Shown piece by piece: positions 4,669 to 53,071 of a stretch of DNA of 64,000 nucleotides (the first letter of the stretch is position 1; each line of letters opens with the position of its first letter). The stretch comes from Octopus vulgaris (taxonomy: Eukaryota). The stretch lies in the NCBI GenBank assembly GCA_951406725.2, contig OX597835.1:17918001-17982000 (forward strand), read 5' to 3'. The notes below the pieces were generated by a model. That model was not told where the DNA came from. It saw only the letters and a program-made list of their open reading frames with translations, and did not search any database. Made by a program: the position numbers and the translations under genes.

Positions 4669-7600
4669 ACTTTTTTTTCTTCTTTCAAATTTTCTTCCAT
4701 TTCTTGCCGAGTGTCTTCCCGACTCCTAGGGCAAAGAAACTCATAGTGTATATTGGTAGGCCATTAAACCAAACTCAGTAGTTCGTTCATTTTTTTTTTT
4801 TTTGTTTTTTTAAGTTAAATTAAAATACATGAGAAGCAACAGTTCTCACATCGACAATGCTCTTCTCAATACGTGTGATGTACCAGTTAAGACAATCTTT
4901 TGCACTTCTTGCAGGGATGGTAAGCCAGGGATCATTCTCATATAATTTTCGGTTCCCTTCTTGATCATTCCTAGTGCTCCTACGATCACTGGTATTGTAA
5001 CCGCCTTGAGATGCCACATTTTCTCAATTTCAATGAGTAGGTCTTTATATTTTCTGAGCTTGTCAAACTCTTTCGCTGAGATATTATGATCACAGGGGAT
5101 GCTCATGTCGATCAATAAGCAAACTTTATTGTTTTGGTCTTTCACAACAATATCTGGTTTATTGGCCTTGATGGTTCGGTCTGTATGTACTGGAAAGTCC
5201 CACAGAATGGTTACATTTTCTCCTTCAGTTACAGCCTCAGGGTGGTGATTATACCACTTGTCGGCAGTTTTGATATTGTAATGCCGACTTATTAGCCAGT
5301 GGAGATATTGGCCAACTCTGTCATGTCTTAATTTATACTCCACTGGTGCTAAGACTTTACATCCAGAGATTAGGTGGTCCACTGTTTCAATCATGTCGTT
5401 GCAGAATCGGCATTTTGGGTCTGCTCCATTTTTCATCACATTGGCCTGGTAGTTCCGGGTTGATAGGCTTTGGTCTTGAGCAGCCAGGATGAAACCTTCG
5501 CTCTCTGCTTTTAGCCCTGAGCTCCGCAGCCACTGATGAGTTTGCTTCTGGTCAACATCAGCTTGTTTGCTGCGGGTCACATATTTGCCGTGCAGAGGTT
5601 TCTCCTCCCACCTATCAGCCAATTGCTCGTGCGCTTTTTTCATTGCCATCATTTTCACCTTCTTTGCAACAATAGTTGCCGTACTTCCCTCGGGTTGTTC
5701 AGTTTGGGTATCCTGCACGAGATCAATAGCAAATTTTTTGCTTTCCTTGATGATAGAATGAAGCTTCTTTCGTCTCTCGTGATGTTCCACGAGCTTTAGC
5801 ATCCAGTCATTCGATATTTCGAGATATTTGGCCAGTCCAATTGTGGTTGTTTTGTAAGCTAGTTCAAATTGGATCAGGCCTCGACCTCCTTGGGCTCTGG
5901 GAAGGTAAAGGCGATCTACGTCTGCCTTTGGGTGGTGCATCCTATTACAACTCAGCAGCTTGCGTATTTTTCTATCTATATCCTTTACTTCACTCATATT
6001 CCAGTTCAACACATTGTAGCTATAAGTAACAACTGGAACTGCTAAGGAATTTATAGCTAACACCTTGTTACGTGCATTTAGTTCAGATTTCAGGACTGCA
6101 CGAACTCTCCTATAACATTCCTTCCTGATTTTCTCTTTCATGCTTGCATGCTGAATACCAGAGCCTTCATTTATCCCTAAATATTTGTATGTTTGTTCTT
6201 GCTCAAGCTCTCTTATGACTGTGTCAACATCTAACACGACTGAATTTGTGGTCTTCACTTTCCCTTTCTGGAAAGTGGCCTTGGCACACTTCTCAAGTCC
6301 AAACTCCATCCCGATGTCATCGCTGAATGCTTTCACGGTGCGCAATAGGCCTTCAAGTTCATTATTGTCTTTACCATAAAGTTTTAAGTCATCCATATAA
6401 AATAGATGGCTTATTTTTTTATTGGCAATTTTATACCCATACCCTGTTCTGTTTAATTCACTTGTAAGGGGTATTAGGGCTATGCAGAATATTAAAGGTG
6501 AAAGTGAGTCACCTTGAAAAATTCCACAGTTGATGTTTATATTTTCTGAGGCAAGTACTCCATTAGAGTGGTATAATTGGAGATTCGTATTCCACAACGA
6601 CATATTGTGCTTCAGGAAGTTTGAAATCACAGGGGAAATTTTGAAGATGTCCAGTGATCTCAAGATCCATGGATGCGGTATACTGTCGAAGGCCTTTTTA
6701 TAGTCAATCCATGCGGTGCTGAGATTTCTGCGCTTGTTGTGACAGTTCTCAAGGATCATACGATTGATTAGCAGTTGATCTTTGCATCCGTAAGAGCCTC
6801 GGCGGCACCCTTTTTGTTCAATGGGGAAAATATCGTTCTTCTCCATGAACGCATATGTTTTCTCCGCCAGGATAGATGTTAGGATTTTATACGTGGTGGA
6901 TAGACAGGTTATAGGCCGATAGTTTTTTGGAAGGTTGGTTTCGTTATTCTTTGGGAGTAGGTAAGTAATGCCACTTGCTAACCATTCAGGTGTTTTCTTT
7001 GGGTCTCTCATAATTCAATTGAGCAGCTGAACTAGCTTACCGTGTGCGCACGGGAGCGATGCGAGCCAGAAATTCGGCACCCTATCTTTACCGGGGGATT
7101 TCCAATTATGGGCCTTCGTTAGAGCCTTTCTTAGGTCTGCTATTGTGATGTCTTCCCATGCTTGTTGTAAATTTTGGTAGGATCCTTCAGTTTGTATAAT
7201 CCAGTCTGCATTTATGTTGTACGTTTTCTTGTCACTCCAAATCCTTTTCCAAAAGTTTTGAACTTCTTCCATGGGAGGGGGGTCTTTAACGGTTACTTTC
7301 TCCTTCCCTATTTCTCTGTAGAATTTTTTGGCATTGGATGTGAACAGCTTATTTTGCTTGTAAAACTTGTTTCTCTTCTCAAATCTTCGTATTCTTTGGG
7401 CTTTTGCTTGGACTTTTTGTTTCAGCGTTTCTTTTATTGATATCAGTTCTTCTCTTGGTGAGGATCCAAATTTTCTCTTCATCTTTCTTCCTGTTCTGGA
7501 TCTTACATCATTTCCACATATTAGTTCATTTAATATTGATATTTCCCCTCTCATAAATTCAATCTCTTTTTCAATTTTACTTCTCCAGGTTTGATTTCTT

Positions 7601-8641
7601 CCCAGGTTTTGTTTTCTTTGTTTTTTCGGGGGCATACAGCTGGTTTCAATTGCCCTGGCAGAAGCGTAAATAATTTCATTTAACTCAGTAAAATCAGGTT
7701 TTAATTCTCGTATTATTTCATTTGTTACATAGTTGCCAATTTGGATTTGTTTTTTATTTTGGTTTGTATTTGAGAGTTTATGAAGCGGTTCTCTATCATT
7801 CATACTTGTATGTCTTACAACTTCAAGCGTATTCAGGATTTTCTGCCTCATTTCTGCCATAGACTCTCTGTGTTCTTCAGCAAATGCGAGATCTTCAGTT
7901 ACTGTTGTTTTTTCGTTTTCCTGGCTATCTTTAACAGGTACAATAGAATTTCTTGTATCTTCAGGCCTTTGCGTACTTTGGTCAGATGGCAGTCTTTCAA
8001 TTAAGCCTCGTGGCGGGCTATACTGTTCATCTGATTCTTCATTTCCTTTGTGTCTTATATTTATGTCATTTTCCGTTGCGTGCTTGATCGCGCTTATTTC
8101 ACTGTCTGTGAGTCTGTTATTTCTAAAGATATCCCTCCTCACATTTGCTAATTTGTTCTCGTCCAAATAGGGCCTACTGTCTTGATTCCGTGTTCTCCAT
8201 ATACCGTAAGAGTTTGCGGTGTGTCTCTCTTGAGATGGCCTACCTAATGCATAGTAATAAGCGTATATTACTTCTTTATACTCTTCTCGGGTCCATTTGT
8301 TCCGCTTACATTTTTCTTTCTGTGGTGGTTGTGGTGGTGAACTTGGAGGGCTCGAGTTGGGGGATTTCCCGTTCAAGTGACCATCCATGTCCGTATTCGG
8401 AGAAGAGTTTGTGCCAGTTGATGACTTTTCGATCCCAGGCTGGCTCTTCCCTGGGGGACGCGCTTCCAGATTAACCATAGGACAAGCGATTTGGTATACT
8501 GATTTAGTTTTCCTTTTAGTTTCCAAAAACATTTTGGTGCTACGATAATGTTATCATTTTTTAGCTTTGATTGGCTCGTGGGGAGACGGCCATCATTGCC
8601 GTTACAATTATAATCGTACCATTATAGCAGCCGTAGTCGGC
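4669..8641 (-). mobile_element. Near-full-length R4/Dong-clade non-LTR retrotransposon with RLE endonuclease (~3.97 kb)
   Basis: Single reading frame 8532->4846, a 3' UTR ending gaagaaaaaaaag-taataataa, and a short 5' UTR; both junctions abut (TAA)n. Motifs: RT (YRPITCL, IDYKKAFDS, GIFQGDSLSPL, YMDD), CCHC knuckle CRFC..DHLISGC, RHD, and PD..D..K-type nuclease (KPDIVV..LIDMSIP..EFDKLRKY). Confidence 0.93.
4846..8532 (-). pseudogene. RT-RLE polyprotein (~1228 codons) interrupted by one in-frame TGA at 7015-7017
   Basis: ORFs 7015..8532 (505 aa) and 4846..7011 (721 aa) are in the same frame, separated only by TGA-ATT (...KLVQLLN*IMRDPKKTPEW...). The RT N-terminal motif KSPGKDRVPNFW is in the upstream ORF. 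Confidence 0.9.
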
Positions 8642-16141: not shown

Positions 16142-16183
16142 GGCATATATGCATACATATATGCACATACCTACATCTATACG

Positions 16184-16220
<37 letters not shown>

Positions 16221-16223
<3 letters not shown>

Positions 16224-16811
16224 ATAACAATTTAGGAGTGACCTTGACAGGCCATTCGTCCACCAGAGAGAGCAGCCATAACTCACACCGCCAAGTAGTA
16301 GTAATTCAGAAATTAGGAGAAAATTTAAAAACATTTACCCTAATTCATCTTTTAGACGATGCATCGTTTCTGTGTTATTGATGATTAAATTAGCTTAATT
16401 AAATTAAATTAAGCTAATCTACCATAGGTCACACTTCATCAGTAAAAAACCTTGGGAGAGACAAATATACACGAGGCGTCTGTATCGATGCCTCCGGAAT
16501 ATCTGTCTTAAAATTTTCAAGACCGACGCATTCGCGCCAAACCTATCAGCAGTAAATATAAACTGCCGATTCAATCTCAGAATTATTCAGAAAATTATCA
16601 ATTAGTCAATTTAGGGACCTCTTTCTGAATTACTACTACTTGGCGGTGTGAGTTATGGCTGCTCTCTCTGGTGGACGAATGGCCTGTTAAGGTCACTCCT
16701 AAATTGTTATATTCTTATATATTTAGTCTTTGACTATTTTCTCTTTTCCACTAGGCCGCTGGTAGCGATAAATTTCTATTGAATTTTTTGCTACCCTAAA
16801 TTGACTAATTG

Positions 16812-16812
<1 letters not shown>
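16221..16812. mobile_element. Hammerhead-containing retroelement insert (retrozyme / Penelope pLTR-like) with internal inversion
   Basis: 92-bp inverted repeat (16221-16312 vs 16622-16713, 1 mismatch) plus 19-bp inverted repeat (16598-16616 vs 16794-16812); contains an HHR; flanked by A/(TA)n tracts. Confidence 0.7.
16350..16447 (-). ncRNA. Type I hammerhead ribozyme with palindromic stem III and extended stem II
   Basis: Minus strand reads tttta-CTGATGA-[~65-nt stem II with gtgt/acac base and a 12-bp attagcttaatt/aattaagctaat hairpin]-GAA-ACGATGCATCGT-C-taaaa: intact core, GUC cleavage triplet, 5-bp stem I. Confidence 0.78.
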
Positions 16813-16868
<56 letters not shown>

Positions 16869-16909
16869 ACATATATGCATACATATATGTACATACTGAC
16901 ATCTATACG

Positions 16910-16946
<37 letters not shown>

Positions 16947-17357
16947 GTGTGTGTGTGTGTATGCATGTACGTATATTTGCATATGTGACACACCACGCCA
17001 TGAAACGTATATAACAGAAAAGTACGAAGCACGACTACATGAAACATGAAGTATTCTTTCGAACTACGAAAGACACAAATGGAAAAGAAAACAATCATAA
17101 AGAATGACCCTTCATCAGTTGTTGGCTGTTTCTCTAGTCTCGTATTTCTAGCATTTAACAGCAATGCACTCTGTGTTGATAAAGGGCAATAACTAAAAAA
17201 TCAGTCCAAAGATGTCGGTTTGTGCTGGATGACGGTGCTGAACTCCATATTCGAAAATATAAGGACACCGATATTGTGTCGTATAGCTAGCTGGAATCGA
17301 TGTTTCCTGGGGCTAAACAACAGTAACTATCGTTCTTTCCAGGACAGCCACATTATA

Positions 17358-17723
17358 CTCTCTTTTAATCTTTACTTGTTTCAGTCATTTGACTGCGGTC
17401 ATGCTGGAGCACCGCCTTTTAGTCGAGCAAATCGATCCCAGGACTTATTATTTGTAAGCCTAGTACTTATTCTATCGGTTCTCTTTTGCCGAACCGCTAA
17501 GTTACGGGGACGTAAGCTCACCAGCATCGGTTGTGAAGCGATGTAGGGGAGACAAACACAGACACACAAGCATATACACACGCATATATATATATATATA
17601 TATGTATGCGACATGCTTCTTTCAGTTTCTCTGTATCAAATCCACTCACAAGGCTTTGGTCGGCCCGAGGCTATAGCAGAAGACACTTGCCCACGGTGCC
17701 GCGCAGTAGAACTGAACCCGGAA
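17358..17723 (-). mobile_element. SINE family A copy (5'-truncated)
   Basis: Matches the family A reverse complement. Confidence 0.88.
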
Positions 17724-20754: not shown

Positions 20755-20787
<33 letters not shown>

Positions 20788-20788
<1 letters not shown>

Positions 20789-21135
20789 TCTTTACTCTTT
20801 TACTTGTTTCAGTCAGTTGACTGCGGCCATGCTGGAGCACAGTACTTATTCTATCGGTCTCTTTTGCCGAACCGCTAAGTAACGGGGACATAAACACACC
20901 AGCATCGGTTGTCAAGCAATGCTAGGGGGACAAACACAGACACACAAACACACACACGCATATATATATATATACATATATACGACGGGCTTCTTTCAGT
21001 TTCCGTCTACCAAATCCACTCACAAGGTTTTGGTCGGCCCGAGGCTATAGTAGAAGACACTTGCCCAAGGTGCCACGCAGTGGGACTGAACCCGGAACCA
21101 TGTGGTTGGTAAACAAGCTACTTACCACACAGCCA
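20788..21135 (-). mobile_element. SINE family A copy with internal deletion
   Basis: gctggagcac joins directly to agtacttattc, skipping about 50 bp of the consensus. Confidence 0.85.
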
Positions 21136-22528: not shown

Positions 22529-22932
22529 GGCGCAGGAGTGGCTATGTGGTAAGTAGCTTGCTAACCAACCACATGGTTCCGGGTTCAGTCCCACTCCGTG
22601 GCACCTTCGGCAAGTGTCTTCTACTATAGCGTCGGGCCGACCAAAGCCTTGTGAGTGGATTTGGTAGACGGAAACTGAAAGAAGCCCGTCGTATATATGT
22701 ATATATATATATGCATGTGTGTGTTTGTGTGTCTGTGTTTGTCCCCTAACATTGTTTGACAACCGACGCTGGTGTGTTTATGTCCCCGTTACTTAGTGGT
22801 TCGGCATAAGAGACCGATAGAATAAGTACTGGGCTTACAAAAGAATAAGTCCCGGGGTCGAGTTGCTCGATTAAAGGTGGTGCTCCAGCATGGCCACAGT
22901 CAAATGACTGAAACAAGTAAAAGAGTAAAGAG
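22529..22932 (+). mobile_element. SINE family A, full-length copy
   Basis: ggcgcaggagtggctatgtggtaag ... aagtaaaagagtaaagag. Confidence 0.9.
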
Positions 22933-23229
22933 TATATACCCATGCGTCTATGAATACACGCACACAGGCCCACGTATACAGAAACAGACGCGCACACAAC
23001 GGCAGATAAATATTCAGTTATACAAAACGTTGACAGTAACTTCGAAGTTTCAGCTTGCTCGTTTTGATGAGAGAGTGTAATTAATCAAGTAAGCAGGAAC
23101 TACAACTTTTGTCAATATTTTCCTCTCCAAAAAAAAAAAAAATTATGGAGTATTTCGAATGAACAAAGTAATGTAACCCGATGGTTGAAATAATTCCGCG
23201 AATTAGGTCCTCCAAAGTCAGTCGGAAGG

Positions 23230-24676: not shown

Positions 24677-25073
24677 CTCTCTTTTACTCTTTTACTTGTT
24701 TCAGGCATTTGACTGCGGCCATGCTGGAGCACCGCCTTTAATCGAGCAACGCGACCCCGGGAGTTATTCTTTTGTAATCACAGTACTTATTTATTCTATC
24801 GGTCTCCCGCTAGGTAACGGGGATGTAAACACACCAGCATCGGTTGTGAAGCAATGCTAGGGGGACAAACACAGACACACAAACGCACACACGCATATAT
24901 ATACACATATATACGACGGGCTTCTTTCAGTTTCCGTCTACCAAATCCACTCACAAGACTTTGGTCGGCCCGAGGCTATAGTAGAAGACACTTGCCCAAA
25001 GTGCCACGCAGTGGGACTGAACCCGGAACCATGTGGTTTGTTAGCATGCTACTTACCACACAGCCACTCCTGC
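24677..25073 (-). mobile_element. SINE family A copy with a long flanking direct repeat
   Basis: Family A reverse complement; gttaaaaaaaatatacgcaatagaaaatatttt.cact is present on both sides. Confidence 0.88.
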
Positions 25074-43476: not shown

Positions 43477-43479
43477 TTG

Positions 43480-43801
43480 CTTCTGTCATTCGACTGTGGC
43501 CATACTGGAGCACTGCCTTTAGTCGAGAAAATCGAGCCCAAGACTCATTCTTTGTATGCCTACTAACTAATTCTATCGGTCTCTTTTTGCTGAACCGCTA
43601 AGTTACGGGGATGGAAACACACCAGCATCGGCTGTCAAGCGATGTTGGGGGGACAAACACAGACATACAAACATACACACACACATATATATATATATAT
43701 ACATGTATACGACGGGCTTCTTTCGGTTTCCGTCTACCACATCCACCCACAGGGCTTTGGTCGGCGCGGGGCCATAGTAGTAGACAATTACCCAAGGTGC
43801 C
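43480..43801 (-). mobile_element. SINE family A copy (5'-truncated)
   Basis: Family A reverse complement. Confidence 0.82.
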
Positions 43802-46029: not shown

Positions 46030-46770
46030 CATTAAAATATATCGGACTTTCGAAGATGTCATATTGTCGATGCTCGTATGGCAGGCCCTAGATTAACAAT
46101 AACAGCCAAAATGTTTGTTGTATAAAGAAGTATTGTCCTCCATCGAAACAAAACTCCAGACGAAAGCCAAAACTTTCAGATAGGAACCGTCGGGCTCTTA
46201 CACGAATTGTTAGAAAGGATAACAAAAGTATAGCTCACAACATTACTGCAGAACTTAATGACCACATCGGGAACTGTTCGCCGGGCTGCTATCAGAAAAC
46301 CACAACTTTCAAATCAAACGTTGCAATGCGTTTGGAGTGGAGTAAAAACTACAGAATTGGTTTCTAGAGCAGTTGAAGAATGTTATTTTCGCAGACGAAT
46401 CATCCTTTACCTTATTTCCAACCATCGGCTGATTATACGTATGGAGACAGCATTTGACCTAGACGTCCTTCTTCCAGCTGTTATATACGGTGGAGGATCT
46501 GTGATGATCTGGGCAAGCTATATTTTGGAGATCCACCGGCCCAATGGTTTCCCTTCATGGCAGATTTAATTGTCAAGACTATTTGAGCATTTTATCTGTT
46601 AAAATTCATCCTATGGTTGCGGAACTGTTTCCGTAAGGAAACGCAATCTTTAACACAGCTAAATTGTTACTGAATGACACGAGGGACATTCTAGTGACGC
46701 TGAACATGTTACCTAGCCACCACAGGCCCTAAATCTTAATGTTATTGAACATACATGGTGCATTTTACAA
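46030..46770 (+). pseudogene. Decayed Tc1-family transposase
   Basis: Frameshifted motifs HIVDARMAG, FADESSF, GGGSVMIW and PPQALNLNVIEHTW (variant of SPDLNxIE.W). Confidence 0.75.
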
Positions 46771-52515: not shown

Positions 52516-52865
52516 GACGCAGGAGTAGCTGTGTGGTAAGTAGCTTGCTTAGGAACCACATGATTCCGGGTTCAGTCTTGTGAGTGGATTTGGTAGACGG
52601 AAACTGAAAGAAGCCTGTCGTATATATCTATATATAGGTATGTATGTGTGTGTATTTGTTTGTGTGTCAGTATTTGTCTCCCTCCCAACATCGCTTGACA
52701 ACCGATGCTGGTGTGTTTACGTCCCCGTAACTTAGCGGTTCGCCAAAAGAGTCCGATATAATACGTACTAGGCTTACAATGAATAAGACCTGGGGGTCGA
52801 TTTGCTCGACTAAAGGCGGTGCTCCAGCATGGCCACAGTCACACGACTGAAAGAAGTAAAAGAGT
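52516..52865 (+). mobile_element. SINE family A copy with internal deletion
   Basis: ggttcagtc joins directly to ttgtgagtgg. Confidence 0.85.
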
Positions 52866-53071
52866 ATTTGTTAATATAATTATATTTCATCCTAAATAAA
52901 TTAATAGGGTTTTATTTAAGCGTCAGATATCTGTGAGGTCCAGTGGATTAAAATAGAAATCAACGAGTTCCTTGGACAAAAATCAGTTGTTCTAAATAGT
53001 CAACAAGAACAGAGAGTAGTAACTATCTCAGGAATAATTATACGAGTATTTATAAATACAATTTACATATT

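Follow-up and report, generated by a model that had tools for sequence, protein, structure and literature searches.

A non-coding, hammerhead-bearing insert with two head-to-head arms probably belongs to a retrozyme family that moves as a non-autonomous Penelope-like element

The insert described here occupies positions 16221-16812 of a 64,000-nt stretch of DNA, the whole of which was analysed (hereafter the window). It comprises 592 non-coding bases and consists of two back-to-back pieces, whose parts are as follows.

16221-16616, minus strand: left arm, reading A-hammerhead region-linker-B; 5'-truncated at the centre, with its 3' end in the left TA tract
16221-16312, minus strand: segment B, left copy; terminates in a TA-rich stretch that continues into the flanking TA tract
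16598-16616, minus strand: segment A, copy at the centre; 19 nt, with the same sequence as 16794-16812
16617-16621, no strand: spacer of 5 nt at the head-to-head junction
16622-16812, plus strand: right arm, reading B-C-A
16622-16713, plus strand: segment B, right copy; differs from its left counterpart by 1 mismatch
16714-16793, plus strand: segment C, between the right copies of B and A
16794-16812, plus strand: segment A, right copy; 19 nt
16714-16812, plus strand: C plus A, the 'tail' between the two termini; ~97-99 nt, including a 14-bp hairpin at 16761-16795

The two copies of segment B differ at one of 92 positions (16246/16688) and form the longest inverted repeat of the region. A sequence-only reading of the window had described a minus-strand arm of A, hammerhead and B, a plus-strand arm of B, C and A, a 5-nt spacer between them and a setting of A/(TA)n tracts, all of which was borne out by the sequence. 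Removal of both overlaps yields a closed unit of 476 nt with a GC content of 35%, one hammerhead motif in which helices I-III are present and a longest reading frame, on either strand, of 65 codons from stop to stop; these figures agree with the ring of about 476 nt, carrying exactly one ribozyme motif per monomer and no ORF, that had been proposed by the same reading. The predicted fold of the unit was more stable than those of 60 out of 60 shuffled sequences (z = -5.3). No second copy of the unit was found by BLAST in the 64-kb window. A 9-mer is repeated at 16585-16593 and 16622-16630, one copy lying just inside the left arm and the other opening the right arm at its 5' end; together the copies flank the centre junction as a short inverted repeat.

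The hammerhead motif was predicted from sequence and fold to be of type I and to comprise the following elements.

16348-16449, minus strand: type I hammerhead motif, as predicted
16449-16443 paired with 16354-16348, minus strand: helix I, 7 bp with one G-U
16442-16436, minus strand: CUGAUGA box
16421-16386, minus strand: 15-bp hairpin within the long extension of helix II, which itself has 4 bp
16370-16367, minus strand: GAAA
16356-16367, minus strand: helix III, a perfect 12-nt palindrome
between 16355 and 16354, minus strand: predicted GUC cleavage site

Scanning of both strands of the window gave seven loose matches to the hammerhead core at five sites, only one of which (i.e. 16348-16449) possessed a fully self-complementary helix III. 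The palindrome was predicted to be weak as a hairpin (-1.0 kcal/mol) and strong as an intermolecular duplex of two copies (-18.7 kcal/mol), and a palindromic helix III is the arrangement described for hammerheads that cut as dimers (PMC4209133). The core is atypical in having an unpaired A after position 9, and the register of helix II is ambiguous, requiring an insertion of 2 nt or, alternatively, one additional A ahead of G12. The hammerhead fold of the closed unit lies 6.7 kcal/mol above the minimum-energy fold. Searches of Rfam produced no match at the gathering score in the whole window and, for positions 16150-17250 at E-values of up to 10, no hammerhead family among 62 matches, the best of which were microsatellite-driven miRNA models. 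The atypical core, the non-minimal fold and the Rfam results are additions to the sequence-only reading. Self-cleavage between 16355 and 16354 is a prediction from the modelled fold. A second CUGAUGA box is located 300 bp to the right of the insert (17112-17118, minus strand) with GAAAC shortly upstream; the scan gave no hammerhead fold for this box.

Related sequences were sought in public sequencing runs, and part of the stretch was present in 20 of the 24 runs listed, under three organism labels and from eight studies; none of these is recorded as RNA, which is not informative on expression. Four runs were examined at a likeness of 85, namely X1 (of unclear kind), X2 (probably DNA) and X12 and X13 (both guessed to be RNA). 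Matching contigs numbered 1641, 888, 62 and 7, respectively, with identities ranging from 99% or more to under 90%, and the family is high-copy and heterogeneous, in line with the retrozyme family that the sequence-only reading had suggested as a possibility. Summed contig depth, which is not equivalent to copy number, reached 10^5 to 10^6 versus 12-50 at single rare joints and suggests, as a rough approximation, thousands of copies. Such depth cannot reveal RNA ends, and depth steps near the predicted cleavage site were not used. Statements on loose ends and substitutions refer to the 24 of 139 and the 40 of 72, respectively, that were listed, and 2583 contig pieces fall outside this set. A metagenome scan with the helix III pattern produced 18 loci, none of which had a CUGANGA box within 120 nt upstream; with similarity ending at ~28 nt and the box missing, all 18 were rejected as chance matches. 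Viral contigs gave no matches to the element.

The contiguity of C, A and the hammerhead is absent from the locus at 16221-16812, and its presence elsewhere had been set beforehand as a test of the proposed ring; this junction was found in all four of the runs examined. Two joints in X12 run from C through A into the hammerhead arm, 11 contigs of X1 extend behind 16616 into C and nine contigs of X2 extend behind 16812 into the hammerhead arm. A 504-nt contig of X13 (i.e. record 18) runs from 16804 to 16715, then from 16222 to 16616 and then into the end of C again, having a period of 474 nt and a terminal overlap of 30 nt by which it closes on itself. We infer that such an overlap is the expected output for a closed cycle from an assembler with 31-letter words. 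The same contig matches the left arm over its full length, with 19 differing letters and one gap. Every junction of the cycle was observed, including B-C and C-A-hammerhead, and, because these junctions and record 18 close the cycle, the unit is cyclic (~474-476 nt) with no ORF inside it. Contigs of the record 18 type are produced equally by a circle, a tandem transcript or tandem DNA; the locus at 16221-16812 holds one hammerhead, and the short contigs of the runs cannot show arrays.

The dimer-type hammerhead fold is conserved among these copies. Positions 16359 and 16364 co-vary in a manner that preserves the palindrome, the paired change accounting for most of the depth in X1 and both positions being changed in record 18, and a second symmetric variant of helix III was present in one joint of X13 and one loose end of X12. 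None of the 40 listed substitutions (of 72) hit any of the 15 core positions. For 31 of these 40 substitutions, the nine at 16666-16715 being omitted, effects on predicted pairing were assessed: taken one at a time, six disrupt a pair in the hammerhead-containing fold versus 12 in the minimum-energy fold, and the substitutions at 16268 and 16286 break a predicted pair in both. As the variants are pooled over many copies, this comparison is not a phylogenetic test; the variation fits the hammerhead fold and would fit a hammerhead under selection.

Head-to-head arrangements are not confined to the locus at 16221-16812. Six of the 10 joints listed were other head-to-head junctions, distributed over X1, X2 and X13, in which an antisense arm leaves the reference at 16342-16428 and a sense arm begins at 16622 or at 16748-16781. 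Five of these six have a shorter side of under 30 letters at a likeness of 85 and were flagged as weak, and in all six the two arms together are shorter than one unit. The centre junction of the 16221-16812 locus was spanned by none of the contigs listed from the four runs. Between the arms of one X2 joint (16417>16781) lies the 5' half of a diverged hammerhead in which G replaces the extra A after CUGAUGA, i.e. a more distant subfamily represented by one contig.

The termini and flanks of the insert contain the following features.

16144-16217, plus strand: 74-nt direct repeat, left copy; a 44-nt block plus a TA tract, abutting the insert
16698-16706, plus strand: 9-nt motif, ending 6 nt before the B terminus
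16795-16803, plus strand: second copy of the 9-nt motif, ending 6 nt before the 16809 terminus
16813-16869, plus strand: right flank; A15, then TA and TG repeats
16870-16943, plus strand: 74-nt direct repeat, right copy; 3 mismatches in the 44-nt block

Both ends of the insert run into TA tracts, and three X13 contigs stop at 16809 and continue as TA repeats. Two termini are found ~97 nt apart, namely the end of B, which was seen at the 16221-16812 locus only, and the end of A. The left arm ends in the TA-rich stretch of B itself, with TA microhomology at the left junction, and this stretch could pair with a nicked TA target. All four occurrences of the 9-nt motif in the window lie inside the element; the motif was noticed post hoc, 28 of about 20,000 random pairs of 25-mers score as well for a 9-mer, and as a candidate priming signal it is only a lead. 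A wider duplication, with the B end and the C-A end as copies of one module, was rejected beyond the 9-mer (394 of 2000 shuffles score equally), and the structure of the B end is not unusual (z = -0.27). The 5' end of the left arm falls 2 nt into the foot of the 14-bp hairpin at 16761-16795 (z = -2.7 for the hairpin) and, because the foot of a hairpin is a natural stall point, this end may be explained without a circle. The 74-nt direct repeats, which the sequence-only reading did not mention, are 96% identical, bracket the insert and occur nowhere else in the window. The flanking block has mismatches at 3 of 44 positions and the duplicated segments within the element at 1 of 111 (Fisher P = 0.07), and the repeat may represent either a long target-site duplication or an older local duplication.

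A single mechanism can accommodate the cyclic unit and its family, the conservation of a dimer-type fold, the head-to-head copies and the TA termini. With a probability of roughly 70%, the insert is a copy of a non-LTR retrozyme family that works as a non-autonomous Penelope-like element (PLE) and was primed at two sites on an uncut, longer-than-unit RNA. Tandem copies would be transcribed into longer-than-unit RNA, whose hammerheads would pair via the palindromic helix III and cut only as dimers, making cutting slow or conditional. A PLE reverse transcriptase (RT)/GIY-YIG endonuclease acting in trans would nick both strands of a TA microsatellite, and cDNA would be started at two internal sites ~97 nt apart, i.e. 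where B ends and where A ends. One cDNA would proceed through B and the uncut hammerhead and be halted at the hairpin of C, the other would proceed through A, C and B, and the two 5'-truncated products would be joined head to head. Since the left arm crosses the cleavage site, the template would have been uncut or re-ligated RNA. Both a linear unprocessed multimer and a circle fit, with the linear form somewhat ahead. The sequence-only reading had proposed a copy of circular or multimeric RNA: the cyclic unit and the recurrent head-to-head joints speak for this proposal, and a circle over a linear multimer is not established by them.

A source of the enzymes was sought within the window. The unit contains no PLE-type ORF, and no GIY-YIG match to Pfam was obtained at E-values of up to 0.01 for the 150 longest of the 223 complex reading frames of the window. 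The only RT among these 150 frames belongs to a different kind of element ~8 kb away (4846-8550, minus strand) and was set aside as a helper, not being PLE-like. This is a near-complete non-LTR retrotransposon ORF of 511 + 722 aa in one frame with a single stop at 7015-7017; it lies between long trinucleotide tracts, has an RVT_1 match (E = 5e-30) and full-length relatives of about 1,200-1,250 aa with up to 69% identity, and we take it to be R4/Dong-like. Elsewhere in the window, a dispersed repeat of ~400 bp occurs with 80-93% identity at 32-437, 1734-2136, 17354-17723, 20782-21135, 22532-22938, 24683-25073, 43477-43801 and 52574-52866, and a 17-mer of this repeat matches six times; these copies are presumably SINE-like, in resemblance to octopus SINEs. 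A weak Pfam match to Pox_P4B at 22826-23077 (plus strand; 22.9 bits, below the 25-bit cut-off) overlaps a copy of the repeat and is probably spurious. A frame at 46234-46720 (plus strand) has what we assume to be a Tc1/mariner-like transposase motif, and 46234-46566 gave no Pfam match at E-values of up to 0.01.

Nested within the two-site-primed retrozyme reading is a version, possible if unlikely, in which the locus was copied from a covalently closed RNA circle of 476 nt by two RTs on one circle, each reaching the start of the other with a slight displacement (19 and 92 nt). Both ends of the arms overlap; the left arm stops only 19 nt past the start of the right arm, a coincidence that on a long linear multimer would have a chance of ~4-8% (a rough estimate); one unbranched cycle of 474 nt assembles in the probable RNA run X13, and retrozyme circles are known from coral, mussel and axolotl (PMC7229834). 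Against a circle stand the halting of the left arm at the foot of the 14-bp hairpin, arms of less than one unit in the six other head-to-head joints, the one site at which the copies of B differ, the capacity of tandem transcripts or tandem DNA to yield a closed contig, and the use of unprocessed RNA as a substrate by the one PLE tested in vitro (PMC11167929). Similarly unlikely is the fuller form of this idea, in which a real circular RNA of 474-476 nt exists and the locus is a fossil of two Penelope RTs that collided on one circle after beginning at motif-marked start sites. A model from 2014 already has cDNA of more than unit length copied from a circular template (PMC4209133), and in the literature consulted this step is still a proposal; if a circle did serve as template, junctions of this type would be a genome-wide, countable footprint of circular retrozyme RNA integrated by PLE machinery.

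Other readings dispense with an independent short unit or with reverse transcription of a retrozyme. The pieces might be only the pLTR and tail of a long autonomous PLE that was heavily 5'-truncated, which we regard as improbable. The hammerhead does have PLE features and Schistosoma hammerhead pairs lie 100-700 bp apart on opposite strands (PMC4209133), PLE insertions are mostly 5'-truncated and inverted (PMC8557442), and the loose ends that might lead into a longer element are known for only 24 of 139; yet a single contig closes a 474-nt cycle without an ORF, the B-C and C-A-hammerhead junctions were seen directly and the longest frame of the unit has 65 codons. Quite improbable in our judgement is a tandem satellite with a decaying hammerhead that spreads at the DNA level, the inversion having arisen by recombination or break repair in a duplicated microsatellite block. 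Local amplification of retrozymes as satellites has been proposed (10.64898/2026.07.22.740005), and the flanking copies of the 74-nt block may predate the insert given their mismatches (3/44 vs 1/111, as above). This account is opposed by the variable 5' truncation, the repeated 3' termini in TA repeats and the recurrent head-to-head joints, which fit target-primed reverse transcription, and by the compensatory changes of helix III, which argue against neutral decay. That the head-to-head layout is an assembly artefact, fusing two repeat copies in low-complexity DNA, appears very improbable indeed: the centre junction is unspanned by the contigs listed and the flanks are microsatellites, but six similar joints occur in three independent runs, the 5-nt spacer is private to the locus and the arms differ at one base.

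L1 twin priming, in which primers from both target strands give divergent arms, proceeds from the poly(A) end of one linear mRNA and usually leaves small overlaps. Divergent arms are common to L1 and to the insert, whereas the starts here are internal and sequence-defined and the overlaps measure 19 and 92 nt. Three further classes were considered and rejected. An autonomous PLE would need an ORF with RT and GIY-YIG domains, and the unit has none. A plant LTR retrozyme has a type III hammerhead, direct LTRs and a 4-bp target duplication; the motif here is of type I, the repeats are inverted and no 4-bp duplication was defined. For a MITE or foldback DNA transposon, the right copy of B is internal, with 99 nt of C-A beyond it, and terminal inverted repeats are not present at both ends.

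Metazoan non-LTR retrozymes are tandem repeats with type I hammerheads, and in coral, mussel and axolotl they give rise to RNA circles (PMC7229834). The unit resembles them, as characterized in that source, in being non-coding with one type I hammerhead and a GC content under 45% (35% here), in its strong self-pairing, in its head-to-tail cyclic organisation and in its many heterogeneous copies. It differs from them in length (474-476 nt versus about 170-400 nt), in its atypical core and long helix II extension, in its head-to-head locus and in having cleavage and a circular RNA as predictions (PMC7229834). A preprint of 2026 proposes that retrozymes are non-autonomous PLEs with units of 51-972 bp, a range that includes the unit described here (10.64898/2026.07.22.740005). 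The same source reports that eight of nine predicted Xenopus retrozymes remained uncut in vitro and one was cut, and its definition of an active copy asks for two or more complete hammerheads in a genomic tandem. Its argument uses 35 genomes (vertebrates, insects and one coral, with no mollusc class listed in the text available) and relies on co-occurrence and on the phylogeny of pLTRs, whereas the link to PLEs here lies in the insertion architecture itself (10.64898/2026.07.22.740005). The sequence-only reading had set a retrozyme and a Penelope pLTR against each other as alternatives, a distinction largely closed in print by the proposal that retrozymes are PLE derivatives (10.64898/2026.07.22.740005).

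Many PLE insertions include a 5'-truncated copy in inverted orientation, carry a tail of 30-40 bp at one end and lie in microsatellite or TA targets (PMC8557442). In an anole PLE, both strands of the target receive a nick and are then extended, the tail is set by two internal sites at which the RT starts, and the RNA is copied without having been cut (PMC11167929). The insert shares with these elements the inverted 5'-truncated copy adjoining the 5' end, the extension at one end, the TA/AT-rich target and a hammerhead that was crossed uncut, and its two termini may correspond to two internal start sites (PMC8557442, PMC11167929). Unlike PLEs as described there, it has no RT/GIY-YIG ORF and its tail is ~97 nt rather than 30-40. 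Naiads are a TA-targeting PLE clade without canonical hammerheads (PMC8557442), in contrast to the hammerhead motif of this element. A helix III that is a palindrome and one additional nucleotide following position 9 are features of PLE hammerheads that recur here; relative to the variants in that account, the helix III palindrome here is longer (12 nt) and the register of helix II ambiguous (PMC4209133). Judged by its sequence features, the element behaves like a PLE insertion and has those features of non-LTR retrozymes that were checked, i.e. a hammerhead, a short, non-coding, low-GC and self-paired unit, a cyclic organisation and many copies.

Elements of this kind are already known, and no new class is involved: published work covers retrozymes and how they relate to Penelope, as well as 5'-truncated copies in inverted orientation, tails and the model of a circular template. 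Penelope elements are abundant in coleoids according to PMC8967140, whose available text makes no mention of hammerheads, and no hammerhead or retrozyme family of octopus or other cephalopods appeared in the titles and abstract openings searched; Repbase, Dfam or subscription journals may hold such a family. The species lists in the supplements of PMC7229834 and 10.64898/2026.07.22.740005 may include the family or its host. If the host is a cephalopod, retrozymes would be extended to a group absent from the literature searched. The many junctions of the family can be counted, making it testable whether a circle or an uncut multimer is the template and, likewise, whether the 9-nt motif marks RT start sites. 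So far, inferences on the movement of animal retrozymes draw on co-occurrence and on similarity among pLTRs; a family present in many copies and bearing the insertion signature of a PLE (i.e. an inverted truncated arm, a tail and a TA target) would tie the retrozyme to the PLE by mechanism.
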